From contig CAXXKM010000001.1 of the NCBI GenBank assembly GCA_963664435.2, positions 832,001 to 896,000 of the forward strand: a stretch of DNA of 64,000 nucleotides, given 5' to 3'. Shown here one piece after another: positions 49,637 to 56,488 of the stretch. Every line of letters starts with the position of its first letter. Position 1 is the stretch's first letter. The position numbers were made by a program, and so were the translations under genes. Below the pieces are notes generated by a model, which was not told the origin of the DNA, did no database searches, and worked only from the letters and a program-made list of their open reading frames with translations. The DNA comes from Longimicrobiales bacterium (GTDB taxonomy: Bacteria; Gemmatimonadota; Gemmatimonadetes; Longimicrobiales; Gaopeijiaceae).

Positions 49637-50866
49637 GTGCCTGATTCCAGGTCCGTCCGCGGGCTGGCGAGTGGTCCTGGCCGGCGGCCGGCGCGGTCCG
49701 GGTGCGCCGCCATCCCCGCGAGGCGGGCAGACGGTCGGTCGAACTGGAGCATCGCGGGCATCCTCACCGCATGCGCCATCCTCACCGCGTGCGGCATCTT
49801 CGACGCGACCTCGCCGTTCGACGGCGACGGCAGCAACATTCCGCCCGTGCCCGAGGACTCCTTCTGCAGCATTCCCGAGGAACTGGTCGTCTCCGGGGGC
49901 GTGGGCCGGGACGGCATCCCGGCTCTCCGCAACCCGTCGCTGGTGCCCAGCCACCACGCCGAGGCCACCTACCTCGGGGAGGCCGACCGGGTGATCGGGA
50001 TCGAGGCCGACGGGCGCTTCATCGCGGTGCCGCACAACATCCTCTGGTGGCACGAGATCGTGAACCTCGACGACTTCGGGAGCCCCATCGCCGTCACCTA
50101 CTGTCCCCTCACCGGGTCGAGCATGGTCTTCGACCGCTCTGCCATCGAGGGTGCCGACCTGGGCGTGTCGGGCCTCCTGTTCCACAACAACCTGATGATG
50201 TTCAACCGCCGCAGCGACGGGACCCAGGAATCACTCTTCCCGCAGATGCTGCGGAGTGCTCGATGTGGTCCGCTGGACGGCCAGCCGCTCGAGTTGCTTC
50301 CGTCGATGGAGATGCGGTGGAACGCCTGGAAGGACCTGCACCCCGAGACCCTGGTTGTCTCGGGTATCCGGGCCCGCGGCGGGGACTACGAGAACTACCC
50401 CTACGCCGACTACGAAGTGGTCGACAACAGCCAAACCCTGTTCCCGAACCCCGAGTTCGACACCCGGCGGCCCCCCAAGGAGCGCGTTCTCGGTATTCCG
50501 CGCGACAACGGGCACGGCATGGCCTATCCGTTCATCGTGCTCGAGAGCAGGGGCGATGTCGTGGTGGTGCACGACGACGTGCAGGGGACTCAGCCGGTGG
50601 TGGTGTTCTGGTCCAGCCAGGCCCAGGCGGCGATGGCCTACGAGCCAATGGTCAACGGCCGAGACCTTGCCTTCGAGGTCCGCGACGGCGGGTTCTTCGA
50701 TGTGCAGACCGGCAGCAGATGGACCCTCGGGGGTCGTGCCGCCGACGGGCCTCTCGAGGGCTCGGCGCTCCAGCCGGTGCGCGACGCCTACGTGGCGTTC
50801 TGGTTCGCGTGGGCGACCTTTCACCCGAACACCGAGGTCCTGTCAGGCCCGCTCAGGATCTCCTGA
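49637..50866 (+). CDS. DUF3179 domain lipoprotein
   Basis: GGVGRDGIPAL, HEIVN, TYCPLTGS, GVSGLL, FWFAWATFHP. Start uncertain. Confidence 0.9.
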   Translation: MPDSRSVRGLASGPGRRPARSGCAAIPARRADGRSNWSIAGILTACAILTACGIFDATSPFDGDGSNIPPVPEDSFCSIPEELVVSGGVGRDGIPALRNPSLVPSHHAEATYLGEADRVIGIEADGRFIAVPHNILWWHEIVNLDDFGSPIAVTYCPLTGSSMVFDRSAIEGADLGVSGLLFHNNLMMFNRRSDGTQESLFPQMLRSARCGPLDGQPLELLPSMEMRWNAWKDLHPETLVVSGIRARGGDYENYPYADYEVVDNSQTLFPNPEFDTRRPPKERVLGIPRDNGHGMAYPFIVLESRGDVVVVHDDVQGTQPVVVFWSSQAQAAMAYEPMVNGRDLAFEVRDGGFFDVQTGSRWTLGGRAADGPLEGSALQPVRDAYVAFWFAWATFHPNTEVLSGPLRIS

Positions 50867-50877
50867 CGGAGCACACG

Positions 50878-52875
50878 ATGCTGAGGTTCGCCGAGGAACT
50901 TCTGGTTCTCGTGCTGGACGAAGGCCGTGGCGATTTCGCCCCGAGCCTGCCCTCCCGGTCGCTCAATCTGGCGCTCGCCGGAGCCGTGCTGATGGACCTC
51001 GCGCTCGAGGACCGCATCGACACGGATCTCGACCGGCTCATGCTGATCGACTCAACGCCGCTCGGTGACGATATCCTCGACCCGACGCTGGCCGAGATCG
51101 CGCGCGATGGCCGGTCGCGAGACACGGCATACTGGCTCGGGCGGACCGCCGGGCGGGGGGACCGCATCCGGCGCGCCGCGCTCGCCCGCCTCATCAAGCG
51201 CGGTATTCTGAGATCCGAGGCGCAGGGGCTGCTGTCCCTGGTTCCCGCCGTGTCCCGGTCGCGTCGCTATCCCGCCGCCGACGGGCAGCCGGTCGAAGAG
51301 GCCAGGCTGCGCGTGATGCGGATCCTGTTCAGCGACGATGTTCCGGACCCGCGCGACATCGCGATCATCGCTCTCGCAAACGCCTGCGGCGTGTTCCGCA
51401 CGATTCTGTCGCCGGAGGAGCGGGCGCAGGTCCGGGATCGCATCGATCTGCTGAAGAATCTCGACCTGATCGGCCGGACGACGAGCCTGGCGATCGAAGG
51501 ACTCGAGGCGTCCGACGAGCCATCTCCGGAGCGTCGGCGATCGACGGAGATACCGGTGGTGCCGGGCCTTCCGTGGCTCGGAAACGGCCTGGCCATGCGG
51601 AAGGGACTCGTGACCTTCCTCGCCCGCCAGTACCGCGAACTGGGCCCGATCTTCAGGATACGCGCCCCGGGACGCCGGTTCGTGTGCATCGCGGGGCCGG
51701 AAGCGGCCAATTTCCTGACCTCGCACGGGAAGACCGTCTTCCGGTCGCTCGAGCCGATGGCGAACTTTCACAACCAGATGGGCTCGTCGCGCTCGATCCT
51801 GACCATGGACGGGATCGATCACGTCACGACGCGGAAGGCCCAGGCCAGGGGATACGCGGTCCGGGTCATGAGGGACCGGTCACAGGAGGTCGTCGACATC
51901 ACCCGCGACGAGATCCACAGGTGGCCGGTGCGGGCACCGTTCGAGGCGTTGCCGGCGTTCCAGCGCGTGATCGCCGAGCAGATGGGCCACATGATGGCGG
52001 GCTATTCGCCGCAGGGTTACACGCACGATCTGTCCACGCTCCTCGGCGGGCTGCTCCTCAGCGGCGCGACGATGCCGCACATCATGAAGCTCCCGCGCTT
52101 CCGCCGCGCCCGCGAACGAGGCCGGGAGCTGGCCCGGGCGGTCCTCGCGCACAAGCGCGAAGTGGGTCCGCGCAGATCGACGCCGGACTTCATCGACCTG
52201 ATGCTCGAGCTGCGCGACGCCGATCCCCAGCTTCTTCCCGAGACCAACCTGCCCCTGACGCTGCTCGCGCCCTATATGGTCGGACTGGATACTACGGCGA
52301 GCACGTGTTCGTTCATGATCTACAACGTGCTGAAGCGCCCGCAGCTCATGGAGCGCATGACCGCCGAGGCGGACGCCCTGTTCGATCGGGGCCGCGTGAG
52401 CGGCGAGGCCCTGAAGGAGCTCGACGTCTCGCGCCGCGTGGCGATGGAGACGCTGCGGCTTCATCCGGTCTCGCCCGCCGTGCTTCGGACGACCTCCAAC
52501 TCCTTCGAGTTCGCGGGTCACAGGGTATCCGCGGGCACCCAGGTCATGATCGGTACGGCGGTCGGGCACACGCTCGAGGAATACTTTCCCGACCCGGAGC
52601 GTTTCGACATCGACCGCTACACGCCGGCTCGCGGCGAACACCGGCAGCGCGGCGCCTACGTCCCCTTCGGGGCCGGCAACCACCGGTGTCTCGGCAGCGG
52701 TCTTGTCCCGGCCCAGCTCGGCCTCACCATGGCCACGATACTGAGGGAGCTCGTGCTGGAGCCGCTCGCGCCCGACCATGCGCTGCGCGTGAGATCGTTC
52801 CCGACCATGCAGCCGATAGGCTTCAGAATCCGCGTCCTGCGCCGACGCGCACACAACGTCCCGACGACGAGATAG
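50878..52875 (+). CDS. GPP34/GOLPH3-domain - cytochrome P450 fusion
   Basis: N-terminal LRFAEELLVLVLD...LAGAVLMDLALEDRI...LARLIKRGIL...PDPRDIAIIALA; C-terminal VGLDTTA, ETLR, DPERF, FGAGNHRCLG; one uninterrupted frame. Confidence 0.88.
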   Translation: MLRFAEELLVLVLDEGRGDFAPSLPSRSLNLALAGAVLMDLALEDRIDTDLDRLMLIDSTPLGDDILDPTLAEIARDGRSRDTAYWLGRTAGRGDRIRRAALARLIKRGILRSEAQGLLSLVPAVSRSRRYPAADGQPVEEARLRVMRILFSDDVPDPRDIAIIALANACGVFRTILSPEERAQVRDRIDLLKNLDLIGRTTSLAIEGLEASDEPSPERRRSTEIPVVPGLPWLGNGLAMRKGLVTFLARQYRELGPIFRIRAPGRRFVCIAGPEAANFLTSHGKTVFRSLEPMANFHNQMGSSRSILTMDGIDHVTTRKAQARGYAVRVMRDRSQEVVDITRDEIHRWPVRAPFEALPAFQRVIAEQMGHMMAGYSPQGYTHDLSTLLGGLLLSGATMPHIMKLPRFRRARERGRELARAVLAHKREVGPRRSTPDFIDLMLELRDADPQLLPETNLPLTLLAPYMVGLDTTASTCSFMIYNVLKRPQLMERMTAEADALFDRGRVSGEALKELDVSRRVAMETLRLHPVSPAVLRTTSNSFEFAGHRVSAGTQVMIGTAVGHTLEEYFPDPERFDIDRYTPARGEHRQRGAYVPFGAGNHRCLGSGLVPAQLGLTMATILRELVLEPLAPDHALRVRSFPTMQPIGFRIRVLRRRAHNVPTTR

Positions 52876-52880
52876 ACCCC

Positions 52881-54152
52881 GTGAGCGGCGCTCGCCCGCG
52901 GGTCAGCCTCCCGCGGTATCACTCCCTCGACCGGCTGCGCGCATCCATGATGCTGCTCGGGGTGGTTCGTCACGCCGCGGTGAGCTACGTGCCCGTCGTC
53001 TTCTTCGAATGGCCCTACCGGGACCCCCAGGCCGACATGCTCGCCTACTGGCTGGTCCTCTTCATCCGAGTGTTCAACCTGCCGGTCTTCTTCGCGATTG
53101 CGGGGTTCTTTGCCGCGTACCTGATCGAGACGCGCGGCACCCGTGTATTCCTCCGGCATCGATGGAGCCGGATCGGGGTGCCGTTCCTGGTGGCCTGGCC
53201 CGTCCTGGCGGTCACGATGTTCCTCATCGTGCCGTTCGCCGCCCGCTTCAGCTCCGCGCCGCCGAACGCCGCCTACAGCCTTGTCGAGTTGACCTCTCCC
53301 AGGGCTCTGGACCACCTGTTCATGCACCTGTGGTTCCTCTACCACCTGTTGATTCTCTGCCTGGTCGCGAGCGCACTGCGCCCGCTGGCCGCCCGGATTC
53401 CCGCAGACGTGCGCGCCCGGGCGATGGATCTCTTCGAGCGCTGGGTGCACCGTGGAGGCATCGCGGTGCTGATTGTGACCGCGGGCCTCATACTGTACCG
53501 GATGGAGTCGTGGGCGATCGACTACTACGCCGGTCCGTTTCCCGCCCTGCGCCAGCTGGCGCTGTACGGCCTGTTCTTCGGATTCGGGTGGATGCTGTTT
53601 CGCAGGCGCGAGACGCTTGAGGGCTTCAGGAGTCCCGCCTGGGTTCTCCTTGCGGCCGGGGTCCTGTGCTTCTTCGTGTACCGGCACTTGTTCGAAGTCA
53701 ATTGCCCTCCCAGGCCGGACAGGATGTGCACGGGCATTGACGAGGGACGTCACCTGTCGGCGGTCGTCTTCCTCGCGCTTTCCATGTGGTTCATGGCATA
53801 TGGCCTGATCGGACTCTTCCTGCGCTACATGGACAGGCCGAGCCGGCGCTGGCGGTACATGGCGGACGCCTCGTACTGGATCTACATCGTCCACGTGCCG
53901 TTCGTCATGCTGCTGCCCCTTCTCCTGGCGAGCGTTCCGCTGCCCGCGATCCTCAAGCTGGCGCTGGTCTCGGTCACGGCGATCGGCCTGATCCTGTTGA
54001 CCTACAAGTACTTCGTACGGCCGACATTCATCGGCAAGCAACTGAACGGACACCGTTACTCTCGAGGCGCGGCCTCCTCTCCCTCGGAACCCTCGAGGTG
54101 CCGGCGCGGACGCCCGAACGATCTTCAGCGAGAACCTGCGGGCATGAAATAG
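52881..54152 (+). CDS. Acyltransferase family 3 (OpgC/MdoC-like) membrane protein
   Basis: RYHSLDRLRASMMLLGVVRH, LPVFFAIAGFF, HLWFLYHL, DASYWIYIVH. Confidence 0.92.
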   Translation: MSGARPRVSLPRYHSLDRLRASMMLLGVVRHAAVSYVPVVFFEWPYRDPQADMLAYWLVLFIRVFNLPVFFAIAGFFAAYLIETRGTRVFLRHRWSRIGVPFLVAWPVLAVTMFLIVPFAARFSSAPPNAAYSLVELTSPRALDHLFMHLWFLYHLLILCLVASALRPLAARIPADVRARAMDLFERWVHRGGIAVLIVTAGLILYRMESWAIDYYAGPFPALRQLALYGLFFGFGWMLFRRRETLEGFRSPAWVLLAAGVLCFFVYRHLFEVNCPPRPDRMCTGIDEGRHLSAVVFLALSMWFMAYGLIGLFLRYMDRPSRRWRYMADASYWIYIVHVPFVMLLPLLLASVPLPAILKLALVSVTAIGLILLTYKYFVRPTFIGKQLNGHRYSRGAASSPSEPSRCRRGRPNDLQREPAGMK

Positions 54153-56488
54153 CCAACCCCGCGCTCGTTGCATATGTAGGCCGGGTTGGCCGCATCGTCT
54201 CCCAGCTTGCGACGCAGCCGCTTTACGACGGCCCGCACGAGCTTGGGGTCCGGCGCGCGTCGATCTCCCTTGCGCCACGCCTGGCGCAGCAGCGACTCGT
54301 GTGTCAGCACCCGCCCCACGTTGACCGACAGCACGCGCAGCAACTCGTACTCGGTGGGGGTCAGTTGCACCGACCGGCCGGCAACCGCGACGTGCCGCTG
54401 GTCGTACCGAATGGCCAGTTGCCCCAGGAGGAAGGGCTCGGGCCCGGCTACACGCCGCAGGGCGGCCCGCACTCTGGCCGTCAACTCCGATGGAGAGAAC
54501 GGCTTGACGATGTAGTCGGCCGCGCCCGCATCGAGCGCCCTGACGATCGTCTCGTCCCGGCCGTAGGCCGAGATGAAGATGACGGGCAGGTCGCTCAGTT
54601 CCGGAACCCGCTCCATCAACGCGATGCCGTCGGTCCCGGGCAGCAGCAGGTCCAGCAGGACCAACCCGGGCTTGTGCATCGCGACGAGGTTGGCCACCTC
54701 CTCCGCGTCCCCGGTCACTACCGGGGCGAAGCCCGCCTCGGTGAGCGCGTCTCGAAGGTACCGCAGTATCAGGGGATCGTCGTCTACCACCAGGATGCGC
54801 GTCTTCTCCTCCCTTTGCCCAGCCGCGCCCGGGCCAGCCGATGCGAGACCTTCAGAGGCGGTTTCCGGCTCCTCGGCCAAGGGCAGCGTAAAGGTGAACC
54901 TCGTGCCTTGTCCCACACCTCCGCTTTCGGCCCGGATTCGCCCCCCGTGCGCCTCCACCAGTCCCTTGCAGATGGTCAGGCCGAGCCCGGCACTCGCCCC
55001 GCCTCGCTCCCGGTCGCCGCCGACCGGCGCGGCGTACTTGCGGAACAGGTGGGGCAGTCGGTCCGGCGGCACGCCACGGCCCCTGTCGCTCACCGAGATC
55101 GCCACATGCACGCCTTCGCGCCTCGCGTCGATCCGGATGGGCGACGATTCGGGAGAGTACTTCGCCGCGTTGGACAAGAGGTTGCTCAGGACTTGAACAA
55201 TGCGCGTCCGGTCCGCCATCACCCGCGGCAGGTCTTCCGGCAGGTCGATGTCGAGGTCGTGCCTTCCCGTGCCGCTCACGAACGTGCTCCGCGCCTGGTC
55301 AACGAGAGCTGCGACGTGCGCCGGCTCGGGCGACACCGACAGCGTGCCCGTCACGATGCGCCCGTGGTCGAGCAACTCGCCGATCAGGCCGCGCATCCGG
55401 TCGGCCTGGTCGTCGATGACCCGGAAGAACTGCAGCATCTCAGCCGGGTCCGGCGCCGGCGAGGCGCCCAACACGGTTGCCGTGGAGCCCTTGATCGAGA
55501 TGAGCGGTGTTCGCAACTCGTGGCTCACGATGCCAAGGAACTCTGCGCGCATGCGCTCCAGTTCCTCCAGCGGCTCCAGATCCTGCAGCGTGACCACGAC
55601 CGACACGACCGTGCCGTCGTCCGCCTGGATCGGCGTCGAGTTGACCAGGCTGGTCACGCTCCGGCCATCGGGGACCGAGAGCGTGATTTCCTCGGCGCGC
55701 ACGGTCTCGGGCGTCCCCAACAGCTGCGCCAGCGGAAACTCCGCCAGGGCAACCGCCCGCCCGTCCGCGCGGTGACAGGTGATCGCTTCCAGCAGTTCCA
55801 ACGGAGTGGACCCGGACATGTTCAGCGCGTCGACGATCCGGCGCGCCTCCCGGTTGAACGACATCGGCTCGCCGGTTCGCCCGTCGAAGACCACAACGCC
55901 GACCGGTGAAGTCTCGATCAGGGTCTCCAGGTCCGCCCGCGCCCTGCGTTCCTCCCGGTGCGCGCGAGCGTTGGCGATCGCGGTCGCCGCCTGGGCGGCG
56001 AACAGCGTCAACACCTCCTCGTTGTCGGTGTTGAACTCCTGACCGTCCTCCTTTTCGGCGAGGAAGAAGTTGCCGACGTTAAGGTCGCGGTGTCGCAGCG
56101 GTGCCCCCACCATCGCCCTCGACTCCATCACCTCCGAAGAGAGGCCCAGCGCGCGGACATAGGCGGTCAGATCCGCCACGCGAACGGGCGCCGCAAGACC
56201 CCTGAAGTGCTCGAAGAGCCGTGGGCCGTCCGGCCAGGCGATCAGCTCTTCCTTCTCGGCCGGCGTGAAGCCGGAAAGCACGAATTCCCCGGGCTTTCCA
56301 GCCCCGTCGACGGTGGCGATCACGCCGTAGCGCGCCCCGGTCAACGCACGCGCGCTCTCGACGACCTCCTGCAGCACGGTGTCGAGGTCCAGGCTGCTGT
56401 TTGCGCGCAGCACGGCAGCGCTCAACCTGGACACGCGCTCCCGAAGCGCCTCGATCTCTCTCCTCAACTCGACAGAATCGCCCGCCAT
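54125..56488 (-). CDS. Hybrid sensor kinase / response regulator: GAF-PAS-HisKA-HATPase-REC-wHTH
   Basis: SHELRTPL, NLLSNAAKY, DRGRG, GLGL; receiver LVVDDD...LLDL...KPF; OmpR-type LTPTEY...LRRKL...NERGVGY. Confidence 0.93.
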   Translation of the reverse strand: MAGDSVELRREIEALRERVSRLSAAVLRANSSLDLDTVLQEVVESARALTGARYGVIATVDGAGKPGEFVLSGFTPAEKEELIAWPDGPRLFEHFRGLAAPVRVADLTAYVRALGLSSEVMESRAMVGAPLRHRDLNVGNFFLAEKEDGQEFNTDNEEVLTLFAAQAATAIANARAHREERRARADLETLIETSPVGVVVFDGRTGEPMSFNREARRIVDALNMSGSTPLELLEAITCHRADGRAVALAEFPLAQLLGTPETVRAEEITLSVPDGRSVTSLVNSTPIQADDGTVVSVVVTLQDLEPLEELERMRAEFLGIVSHELRTPLISIKGSTATVLGASPAPDPAEMLQFFRVIDDQADRMRGLIGELLDHGRIVTGTLSVSPEPAHVAALVDQARSTFVSGTGRHDLDIDLPEDLPRVMADRTRIVQVLSNLLSNAAKYSPESSPIRIDARREGVHVAISVSDRGRGVPPDRLPHLFRKYAAPVGGDRERGGASAGLGLTICKGLVEAHGGRIRAESGGVGQGTRFTFTLPLAEEPETASEGLASAGPGAAGQREEKTRILVVDDDPLILRYLRDALTEAGFAPVVTGDAEEVANLVAMHKPGLVLLDLLLPGTDGIALMERVPELSDLPVIFISAYGRDETIVRALDAGAADYIVKPFSPSELTARVRAALRRVAGPEPFLLGQLAIRYDQRHVAVAGRSVQLTPTEYELLRVLSVNVGRVLTHESLLRQAWRKGDRRAPDPKLVRAVVKRLRRKLGDDAANPAYICNERGVGYFMPAGSR

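Follow-up and report, generated by a model that had tools for sequence, protein, structure and literature searches.

A GPP34-like domain fused to a cytochrome P450, with a membrane acyltransferase gene directly behind it, raises the question of whether these genes form one unit and what that unit would act on. The locus lies in a 64,000-nucleotide stretch of Longimicrobiales DNA (the window), and an earlier note made from its sequence had put the fusion forward as part of an undescribed system. The fusion itself proved to be described: Ferreira et al. published it in 2025 as GPP34_L (Microbiome; PMC11706023), and by itself it is no discovery. In the parts of that paper available to us, GPP34_L (GPP34 plus P450) comprises 656 proteins in 780 genomes, is found in sponge symbionts only, is carried by 92.6% of 54 symbiotic Gemmatimonadota genomes, and is expressed in sponge tissue. 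The same parts report that 47.5% of the GPP34 proteins of sponge symbionts are P450-fused, which corrects the note's view that bacterial GPP34 proteins usually stand alone. They give the P450 no function and do not divide the family by gene partners, and the available main text contains neither "acyltransferase" nor "sterol." The new element is the acyltransferase-3 (AT3) gene that travels with the fusion as a two-gene cassette, which does not appear in that text as available to us. See Table 1 for the coordinates of all features.

Table 1. Features of the locus (window coordinates)
Feature	Coordinates	Strand	Basis or remark
DUF3179 gene (PF11376)	49637..50866	+	Adjacent here; outside cassette
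Two-gene cassette, the DNA common to relatives, from ribosome-binding site to end of AT3 core	50865..54073	+	blastn, 26 loci
GPP34-P450 fusion gene (GPP34_L)	50878..52875	+	Single open frame, 665 aa; Pfam
GPP34/GOLPH3-fold domain, residues 1-210	50878..51507	+	Pfam, profile and fold matches, column counts
Linker, residues 213-219	51514..51534	+	Low confidence, pLDDT <50
Cytochrome P450 domain	51541..52872	+	Acid-alcohol pair D471-T472, ExxR 524-527, heme Cys604
Insertion site of tyrosine-integrase element, 14 bp, from heme-Cys codon	52687..52700	+	Empty here
Stand-alone AT3 membrane protein, MdoC/OpgC-like	52881..54152	+	PF01757; below MdoC cut-off; R-X10-H and RXXR

The fusion gene and its P450

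The 665-residue frame carries all the motifs that the earlier note quoted, with GPP34 followed by a complete P450, and the profile check that the note proposed found both families in one protein. Pfam PF05719 (GPP34) matches residues 5–198 (E 6.7e-37, 128 bits, cut-off 29) and PF00067 (p450) matches residues 229–629 (E 1.6e-51); in a sponge-symbiont bacterial host, this combination makes the protein a GPP34_L member. Among the 20 runs that contain the stretch, 7 are labelled sponge metagenome and most of the others bear coded organism names. The source genome holds four GPP34 matches, two of them P450-fused. The AlphaFold2 model of the fusion protein has a mean pLDDT of 89.8 and a pTM of 0.83, and a complex prediction that paired the GPP34 domain with the heme-bearing P450 domain scored 0.01 (mark 0.32), which weighs neither way.

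Chance read-through and an assembly artefact, the latter a possibility that the note had raised, are both ruled out as origins of the fusion by bridging contigs and two-domain homologues. One contig spans the GPP34–P450 junction in all four runs, each from a different study, and among the 120 best of 1335 homologues nearly every one has both domains. The P450–AT3 boundary is spanned in three of the four runs, whose indel table has no entry inside either ORF. The fusion gene is under purifying selection (dN/dS 0.14–0.27 in five pairs).

The P450 domain has every diagnostic feature of its class, namely the heme Cys motif, ExxR, the acid-alcohol pair, and the P450 fold, and C604, E524, and R527 are invariant in 55/55 aligned relatives. 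By convention, P450s of one family are 40% identical. The closest solved structures are CYP51s, and membership of that family is ruled out by the identity of 25–26% and by the Asp that replaces His in the I-helix His-Thr; a best match at 26% says little about the substrate. NCBIfam gave no named P450 family above cut-off. As the note had observed, no redox partner adjoins the fusion gene. A small single-cluster ferredoxin is encoded elsewhere in the source genome, at C2:1059119-1059292; a 2Fe-2S search of that genome gave seven matches, and those inspected include no P450 partner and resemble molybdo-enzyme and respiratory dehydrogenase subunits.

A conserved two-gene cassette

AT3 lies directly downstream of the fusion in 26 of 38 close orthologue loci, which span six phylum-level groups. 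In 10 of the remaining loci the cassette is interrupted by an integrative element and in 2 it stops at contig edges. The element is a 10–11 kb tyrosine-integrase element at the 14-bp heme-Cys site; in interrupted genomes, AT3 was still present in four of five tested, with the P450 3′ end attached in three. Conversely, an AT3 orthologue was found in 10/41 relatives and 10/301 genomes of the phylum, and the P450 or its 3′ end stands directly upstream of it in every locus checked. The P450–AT3 link is thus tight and reciprocal, and the module that the note had proposed is conserved wherever the AT3 orthologue could be located. The identities of the fusion and AT3 to the window copies co-vary (Spearman 0.70 over 26 loci, of which kin are not independent). 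A separate observation is that the AT3 orthologue of one genome is split over two contigs.

The DUF3179 frame does stop 11 nt upstream of the fusion ATG, as the note had it. A third place in the cassette for this gene is ruled out by its presence in 0/38 orthologue loci, and the adjacency recurs only in two 99%-identical metagenome copies.

Eight of 19 genus members yielded no cassette, and 10 of the 38 loci carry an interrupted copy; the unit is therefore dispensable. A promoter scan gave no sigma-70-like site and three terminator-like sites against 2.2 expected, and no RNA dataset carrying the stretch is listed.

Gene partners and substrate

That AT3 travels with the fusion suggests that a fatty molecule, perhaps a host sterol, is oxidised and then capped with an acyl group. 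The best explanation, which we rate at slightly better than even odds as a whole, is that the cassette carries out oxidise-then-acylate chemistry on a lipophilic compound at the cell membrane of sponge symbionts, among which it would have spread horizontally. A ferredoxin encoded elsewhere would feed the P450, which would hydroxylate a lipophilic compound taken from outside the cell. This compound would somewhat more probably be a host sterol or related isoprenoid than another sponge lipid or toxin.

The relatives of the fusion bear on this point. In a P450-domain tree, the AT3 branch groups with loci of ecdysteroid-kinase-like and MFS genes and one sulfotransferase locus (SH-aLRT 97–98; both of our trees are quick P450-domain trees with SH-aLRT support only, in which long branches are unsure). 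In these sister branches the fusion has an exporter and either a kinase or a sulfotransferase as partners, and a more distant branch adjoins sterol enzymes. Within 4.5 kb of the other fused entries (n = 34) there are transferases in 22, exporters in 21, and sterol-type enzymes in 16, versus 2, 1, and 5 for the unfused entries (n = 29), counts that rest on Pfam neighbour labels, on families picked after being seen, and on many entries that are kin. Exporters lie within the same distance in only 9/37 AT3-branch entries and sterol-type genes in 0/37, and no pump adjoins the cassette in the window, all of which weighs against our preferred reading. The acyltransferase may be one of several interchangeable capping enzymes across the family, adding acyl, phosphate, or sulfate, and an RND or MFS pump, adjoining in some genomes, may export the acylated product.

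The second fusion of the source genome, about 28% identical in the P450 domain, overlaps a gene with a sterol-methyltransferase (SMT) domain and lies near a KshA-type Rieske gene. Against our preferred reading, the sterol-gene branch is separate and distant from the AT3 branch and partly lacks the acid-alcohol pair. No oxidosqualene/squalene cyclase (PF13243) was found in the source genome, which is 96% complete, so a sterol substrate would be imported; a de novo steroid gene cluster (cyclase-CYP51-ERG24) is ruled out on the same ground.

A rather unlikely alternative is that the cassette serves to detoxify sponge metabolites other than steroids in general (terpenoids, brominated aromatics, polyketides), by phase I oxidation, phase II capping, and efflux, without any link to sterols. 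It gains from the absence of sterol-type genes within 4.5 kb in all 37 AT3-branch entries, from the drug-type MFS pumps that accompany the kinase-like or sulfotransferase genes of sister loci, from the patchiness of the cassette within one genus, and from the insect EcKL family, which serves both steroid inactivation and detoxification according to the parts of PMC10859841 available to us. However, its chemistry equals that of the oxidise-then-acylate reading and only the substrate differs, and paralogues across several phyla adjoin SMT, KshA-type Rieske, 3-beta-HSD, and steroid 5-alpha-reductase genes, while unfused relatives adjoin triterpene cyclase and squalene synthase genes. The gene partners of paralogues thus lend indirect support to the lipid-type substrate that the note had suggested, and a sterol substrate for the AT3-branch P450 is plausible on similarly indirect grounds.

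The acyltransferase

The AT3 frame begins where the note had placed it, with a GTG at 52881, 5 nt past the fusion TAG at 52873–52875; its database record (P0272, 401 aa) starts 22 codons further downstream. It matches PF01757 (E 2.3e-26, 93 bits, cut-off 31), has seven hydrophobic segments over 1.6 in hydropathy, contains R-X10-H and RXXR, motifs as named in the available text of PMC9558356, and evolves at dN/dS 0.28–0.34. A plasmid search with AT3 returned no orthologue and six records at 25–29% identity. Under the oxidise-then-acylate reading, AT3 would move an acyl group from acyl-CoA onto the P450 product in the membrane.

It is also unlikely that AT3 acylates a sugar (of a periplasmic glucan, a surface glycan, or a glycoside) and that the two enzymes act on different molecules or parts of a pathway and are merely co-inherited. 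The best NCBIfam match of AT3 is MdoC (E 2.3e-43), and AT3 proteins mostly O-acylate extracytoplasmic sugars in the account of PMC9558356 available to us; that most characterised AT3s do so and that the nearest named family is MdoC counts against our preferred reading. Yet the 149 bits (148.8) fall below the NF003014 cut-off of 338, which rules out MdoC/OpgC membership, the neighbour clusters show no recurrent glycosyltransferase or glucan gene next to the pair, and the AT3 orthologue was never observed without this P450 upstream. Small molecules are likewise acylated by AT3 enzymes, among them MdmB and CarE (PMC9558356, same text).

The GPP34 domain and its location

The Foldseek check that the note called for returned the GOLPH3/Vps74 fold over the whole domain (E 2e-7). 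The profile match to GOLPH3 (3kn1) has an E of 9e-21, and fold matches reach Z 18.2 for Vps74 (2zih; rmsd 2.4, 192 aligned) and Z 17.5 for GOLPH3 (rmsd 2.9, 193 aligned); the next unrelated entry is at Z 4.4, and winged-helix proteins at Z ≤4.4 were treated as background. An atlas search with the domain gave GPP34 clusters only. Residues 118–131 comprise a hydrophobic hairpin region and, after it, a basic RSRRY patch.

The PI4P pocket of GOLPH3 is formed by W81, R90, R171, and R174 (PMC2806290, in the part available to us), which map to about L24, A34, D95, and R98 here. Only the R174 position is clearly kept (Arg in 32/55 relatives). The R90 position is Ala, with Arg in 0/55 and 0/29 aligned relatives, there is no Trp upstream of residue 86, and the R171 position is Asp/Glu in 36/55, where a one-residue alignment shift would place R96. 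With the R90 and W81 equivalents missing, PI4P-type binding, which the note had named for the eukaryotic proteins, is not supported for this domain. The ORF opens directly with the first helix of the domain, without a signal peptide, and has no transmembrane anchor, as the note had supposed.

Ferreira et al. (2025) proposed that GPP34 proteins act as secreted effectors, binding PI4P of the host and stopping phagosomes from maturing, in which case the P450 would act in the host cell. This model is very unlikely here: the true GOLPH3/Vps74 fold, the kept R174 position, and the restriction to and expression in sponge symbioses speak for it, yet it fits poorly because most of the pocket is missing and there is no signal peptide. 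The fusion is also coupled to an integral membrane acyltransferase and depends on a partner for electrons. Under the oxidise-then-acylate reading, the fusion protein would stay in the cytoplasm, with the GOLPH3-fold domain, a putative lipid binder, keeping the P450 against the cytoplasmic side of the cell membrane. Docking would rely on the hydrophobic hairpin together with the basic patch, or on contact with a membrane partner through its cytoplasmic part, rather than on a PI4P pocket.

Implications

GPP34_L is among the most widespread sponge-symbiont markers (PMC11706023, in the parts available), and the AT3 partner makes a loosely defined "symbiosis factor" accessible to a two-enzyme assay and narrows the candidate substrates to a small list. 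The missing PI4P pocket allows the published effector model to be tested directly and cheaply. Should the substrate prove to be a sterol, the cassette would bear on who makes the polyoxygenated steroids of sponges and on the role of bacterial GOLPH3-fold proteins. A broader and distinctly tentative proposal is that GPP34-P450s are membrane-docked sterol or triterpenoid oxidases whose capping partners can be exchanged. In that case the AT3 cassette would give O-acylated oxysterols from host sterol and the sister cassettes sulfated and phosphorylated ones, and symbionts would make part of the known acylated and sulfated polyhydroxysteroids of sponges. The GOLPH3 fold might then have originated in bacteria as a means of recruiting enzymes to lipids or enzymes of the membrane, and eukaryotes would have added PI4P binding later.

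Comparison with known systems

The protein shares with published GPP34_L the same two domains, order, and size, a Gemmatimonadota host, several copies per genome, and sponge metagenomes; the available text of that paper proposes PI4P binding, whereas this protein lacks most of the pocket residues. Eukaryotic GOLPH3/Vps74 (PF05719; PDB 3kn1, 2zih) has the common fold (Z 17.5–18.2), the hairpin region, and the R174-equivalent arginine, whereas the bacterial domain lacks the N-terminal extension and the R90 and W81 equivalents, is acidic at R171, and is fused to an enzyme. CYP51 sterol 14-alpha-demethylase of Methylococcus capsulatus (PDB 7jj1/6mcw) is the best sequence and fold match of the P450 (E 4e-36, TM-score about 0.82 over the target), with AGHHTS in the I-helix in place of VGLDTT; the fusion P450 has no fused ferredoxin, and its genome no cyclase. 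MdoC/OpgC glucan succinyltransferases and the macrolide acyltransferases MdmB/CarE (PF01757) are, like AT3, stand-alone membrane proteins with R-X10-H and RXXR, but AT3 scores under the MdoC cut-off and its gene partner is a P450, not a glucan or polyketide gene. Lastly, the steroid gene clusters and sterol methyltransferases of sponge symbionts (PMC9531527; PMC10070321, where "GPP34" occurs 0 times) are built around cyclase, CYP51, and ERG24 and serve de novo synthesis, in contrast to the cassette, which has none of them; the two share habitat, phyla, and horizontal spread, and fusion paralogues adjoin SMT-domain genes.

The GPP34-P450 fusion and its acyltransferase-3 neighbor

The 665-aa protein matches two Pfam families, GPP34 at residues 5-198 (E 6.7e-37) and p450 at residues 229-629 (E 1.6e-51), and so holds both domains in one frame, as the earlier note had read. 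Pfam assigns the preceding frame to DUF3179 and the following one to acyltransferase-3 (AT3; PF01757), and the gaps previously given, 11 nt and 5 nt respectively, are correct. Logan contigs in four runs from four studies span the GPP34-P450 junction, which argues against an assembly artefact; three of the four runs also span the P450-AT3 boundary, and no indels are listed inside either gene. An AlphaFold2 model of the fusion reached a mean pLDDT of 89.8 and a pTM of 0.83, with a weak linker at residues 213-219. dN/dS was 0.14-0.34 over GPP34, P450, and AT3 (five pairs).

The DUF3179 leader contains a short tandem repeat, with one additional 18-bp in-frame unit in three runs. A convergent gene for a hybrid GAF-PAS-histidine kinase-receiver-OmpR protein overlaps the AT3 end by 28 nt and is not conserved next to the cassette.

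Coordinates of features discussed (G000, the window's own genome; G001 and G004, related genomes; C, contigs; L, homologue loci)
Feature	Location	Strand	Remarks
GPP34-P450 fusion ORF	window 50878-52875	+	665 aa
AT3 gene	window 52881-54152	+	
Tandem repeat, DUF3179 leader	window 49745-49790		
Hybrid histidine kinase gene	window 54125-56488	-	
Empty insertion site	window 52687-52700		
Full element (L098)	G004:C4:486403-497736		
Full element (L099)	G001:C42:105478-115568		
Putative group II intron 3' end	L025:7878-7984	-	contig end
Single-cluster ferredoxin	G000:C2:1059119-1059292		candidate electron donor
Second G000 fusion	G000:C1:962546-964699		overlaps SMT-domain gene; RND and KshA-type Rieske gene nearby; distant sterol branch
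Second-fusion locus (L056)	G000:C1:961497-969385		
Multidomain GPP34 frame	L117:6911-9700	-	

An accessory cassette and its interruption

Our orthologue set comprised 45 loci from species genomes, 38 of them close orthologues (65-90%). AT3 lies directly 3' of the fusion in 26 of these 38, so the proposed acyltransferase link is conserved; the P450 gene is broken just past the heme cysteine in ten, a contig edge ends two, and DUF3179 adjoins the fusion in none. By record titles, the 26 loci span Gemmatimonadota, Acidobacteriota, Rhodothermales/Bacteroidota, Alphaproteobacteria, Binatia, and Latescibacterota. We did not take three records with Gammaproteobacteria titles as a further group, as their coordinates match genus mates of G000. 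Among 41 relatives compared, the P450 orthologue occurs in 11 of 19 genus members, with no match at E 1e-30 in the 22 outside the genus. The AT3 orthologue occurs in ten of those 11, nowhere else among the 41, and in 10/301 genomes phylum-wide. The P450 or its 3' end stands immediately upstream at every AT3 locus checked, and DNA similarity to relatives is confined to the two genes (window ~50865 to 54073). The pair is an accessory two-gene cassette moving horizontally.

A 10-11 kb tyrosine-integrase element with a 14-bp repeat is inserted at the heme-Cys codon of the P450 gene in L020-L028 and L048. Five of the ten cut genomes were examined. Three retain the P450 3' end joined to AT3, which in the two assembled through lies 10-11 kb away, behind the integrase; of the other two, one has a partial AT3 at a contig end and one shows no AT3. 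Cargo differs between the full elements, with GmrSD restriction genes in one and an ABC transporter plus IS in the other. Most interrupted loci form one clade, so this may be one old insertion. We propose that clean excision would work as an on/off switch for the P450 gene. Across its three contigs, G000 itself has about 28 near-full copies of this integrase family, at 67-77% identity. The contig end in L025 resembles a group II intron 3' terminus.

Proposed function and family context

G000 (4.51 Mb, 96% complete) has four GPP34 matches, two of them P450-fused, five P450 loci, and no detectable cyclase. Seven of the 20 runs that contain the stretch are labeled sponge metagenome. The P450 residues C604, E524, and R527 are kept in 55/55 sequences and a D471-T472 pair is present, so ordinary oxygen activation is likely. 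The best sequence and fold match is CYP51, an assignment we rejected at 25-26% identity and with the CYP51 I-helix His absent; no NCBIfam family passes. The ferredoxin in the table may serve this P450. AT3 carries the R-X10-H and RXXR motifs of its family (PMC9558356).

We consider it somewhat probable that the P450, docked at the membrane, would hydroxylate a lipophilic compound taken in from outside, and that AT3 would then acylate the product. As a first guess from family context, the substrate would be a sterol or related isoprenoid. AT3 enzymes mainly acylate sugars, and macrolide hydroxyls too (PMC9558356); that this AT3 acts on a sugar we find doubtful.

From loci, 123 P450 domains were gathered (100 after dereplication at 97%), and neighbors within 4.5 kb were labeled by BLAST to Pfam-annotated seeds. 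Since the seeds were picked after inspection, many of the rows are related to one another, and some contigs are short, the counts are descriptive. The AT3 branch (37 rows) has AT3 in 27, an RND/MFS/MMPL exporter in nine, and a sterol-type gene in none. The 34 other fused rows have sulfotransferase (5), ecdysteroid-kinase-like (7), sterol methyltransferase domain (10), KshA-type Rieske (11), steroid 5-alpha-reductase with 3-beta-HSD (3), exporter (21), or no labeled neighbor (5). Among 29 unfused rows, two have a transferase, five a sterol-type gene, one an exporter, and 21 no labeled neighbor. AT3, sulfotransferase, or kinase-type transferases occur at 0/36 stand-alone GPP34 loci. Two quick trees both place the AT3 branch with the kinase plus MFS loci and a single sulfotransferase locus (SH-aLRT 97 and 98); the SMT/Rieske/5-alpha-reductase loci fall together on a long branch of their own (support 100). 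Near relatives therefore display oxidation, capping, and export; the sterol evidence comes from a more distant branch. We regard non-steroid detoxification as unlikely, if slightly less so than a sugar acceptor.

Sponge symbionts have sterol gene clusters and functional sterol methyltransferases (PMC9531527, PMC10070321). Consecutive GPP34-P450, 3-beta-HSD/SdmB-like, and steroid 5-alpha-reductase genes occur in three phyla (L107, L158, L159), and at L242 a triterpene cyclase and squalene synthase adjoin an unfused relative. The fusion is paired with an ecdysteroid-kinase-like phosphotransferase and MFS pump at L182, L186, L188, L189, L192, L197, and L202/L205, and with a sulfotransferase at L105 (which also has genes for activated sulfate), L106, L155, L181, and L191. 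The second G000 fusion has an I-helix without the acid-alcohol pair; its locus also holds a spondin-domain gene, and gene order is shuffled in genus members (L104, L107-L116). A small STAS-domain gene adjoins stand-alone GPP34 (5/36 loci) and some unfused family P450s (L166, L169, L173, L174; L195, L203, L204, L209). Further architectures (P0123, P0090, P0163; P0222, P0232, P0259, P0260, P0270) include two GPP34 domains ahead of P450 and tandem GPP34 by itself, as well as unfused relatives whose C-terminus carries two cNMP-binding domains. One L117 frame, with matches to acyltransferase, ACP, thioesterase, and GPP34, has a mosaic appearance and could be a remnant.

Comparison with known systems

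The earlier note's suggestion of an undescribed system does not hold for the fusion: Ferreira et al. (Microbiome 2025, PMC11706023) named it GPP34_L and counted 656 of these proteins among sponge symbionts. Of 54 symbiotic Gemmatimonadota genomes in that study, 92.6% carry it, whereas its free-living genomes all lack it. "Acyltransferase" and "sterol" have no occurrence in its main text, and its supplementary figure S11 on flanking genes may bear on whether the AT3 link is already published; its spreadsheet has no match for sterol, sulfotransferase, or PF01757 and four for "acyltransferase", the two displayed being FadA. For literature from 2023 on sponge symbionts, no other paper among the matches listed showed the term GPP34. 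The protein family is known; the cassette variant with AT3 appears to be new.

That study proposed GPP34 as a secreted effector binding PI4P (PMC11706023). The fold is that of GOLPH3/Vps74: taken by itself, the N-domain aligns with Vps74 over 192 residues (Z 18.2, rmsd 2.4) and with GOLPH3 over 193 (Z 17.5, rmsd 2.9; next row far lower, 4.4), and a profile of 29 bacterial domains matches GOLPH3 at E 9e-21. The fusion protein has no signal peptide, and its one hydrophobic stretch is marginal and within the folded domain. At the GOLPH3 pocket columns, Arg at R90 occurs in 0/55 fusions and 0/29 mixed domains, R171 is Asp/Glu in 36/55 fusions, and R174 is Arg in 32/55; the window protein has no Trp before residue 86. 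R96 one residue off the R171 column, and a Trp three columns past W81 in 11/29 relatives, count against a firm conclusion on pocket loss. A secreted PI4P effector seems to us very improbable. Both the hydrophobic hairpin region and the basic R-x-R-R-Y patch after it are retained (among 55: R127 42, R129 36, R130 36, Y131 44), and judged from these residues would suit attachment to anionic membranes or to the tail of a partner; Golgi enzymes, too, are bound at their cytosolic tails by GOLPH3/Vps74 (PMC2806290).

Compared with GOLPH3, whose pocket residues are W81, R90, R171, and R174 (PMC2806290), the window protein keeps the R174-equivalent Arg (R98), whereas the other three positions map by profile alignment to ~L24, A34, and D95. 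For AT3, the closest named family is MdoC, yet its score of 149 bits is below the MdoC cut-off of 338 (NCBIfam).
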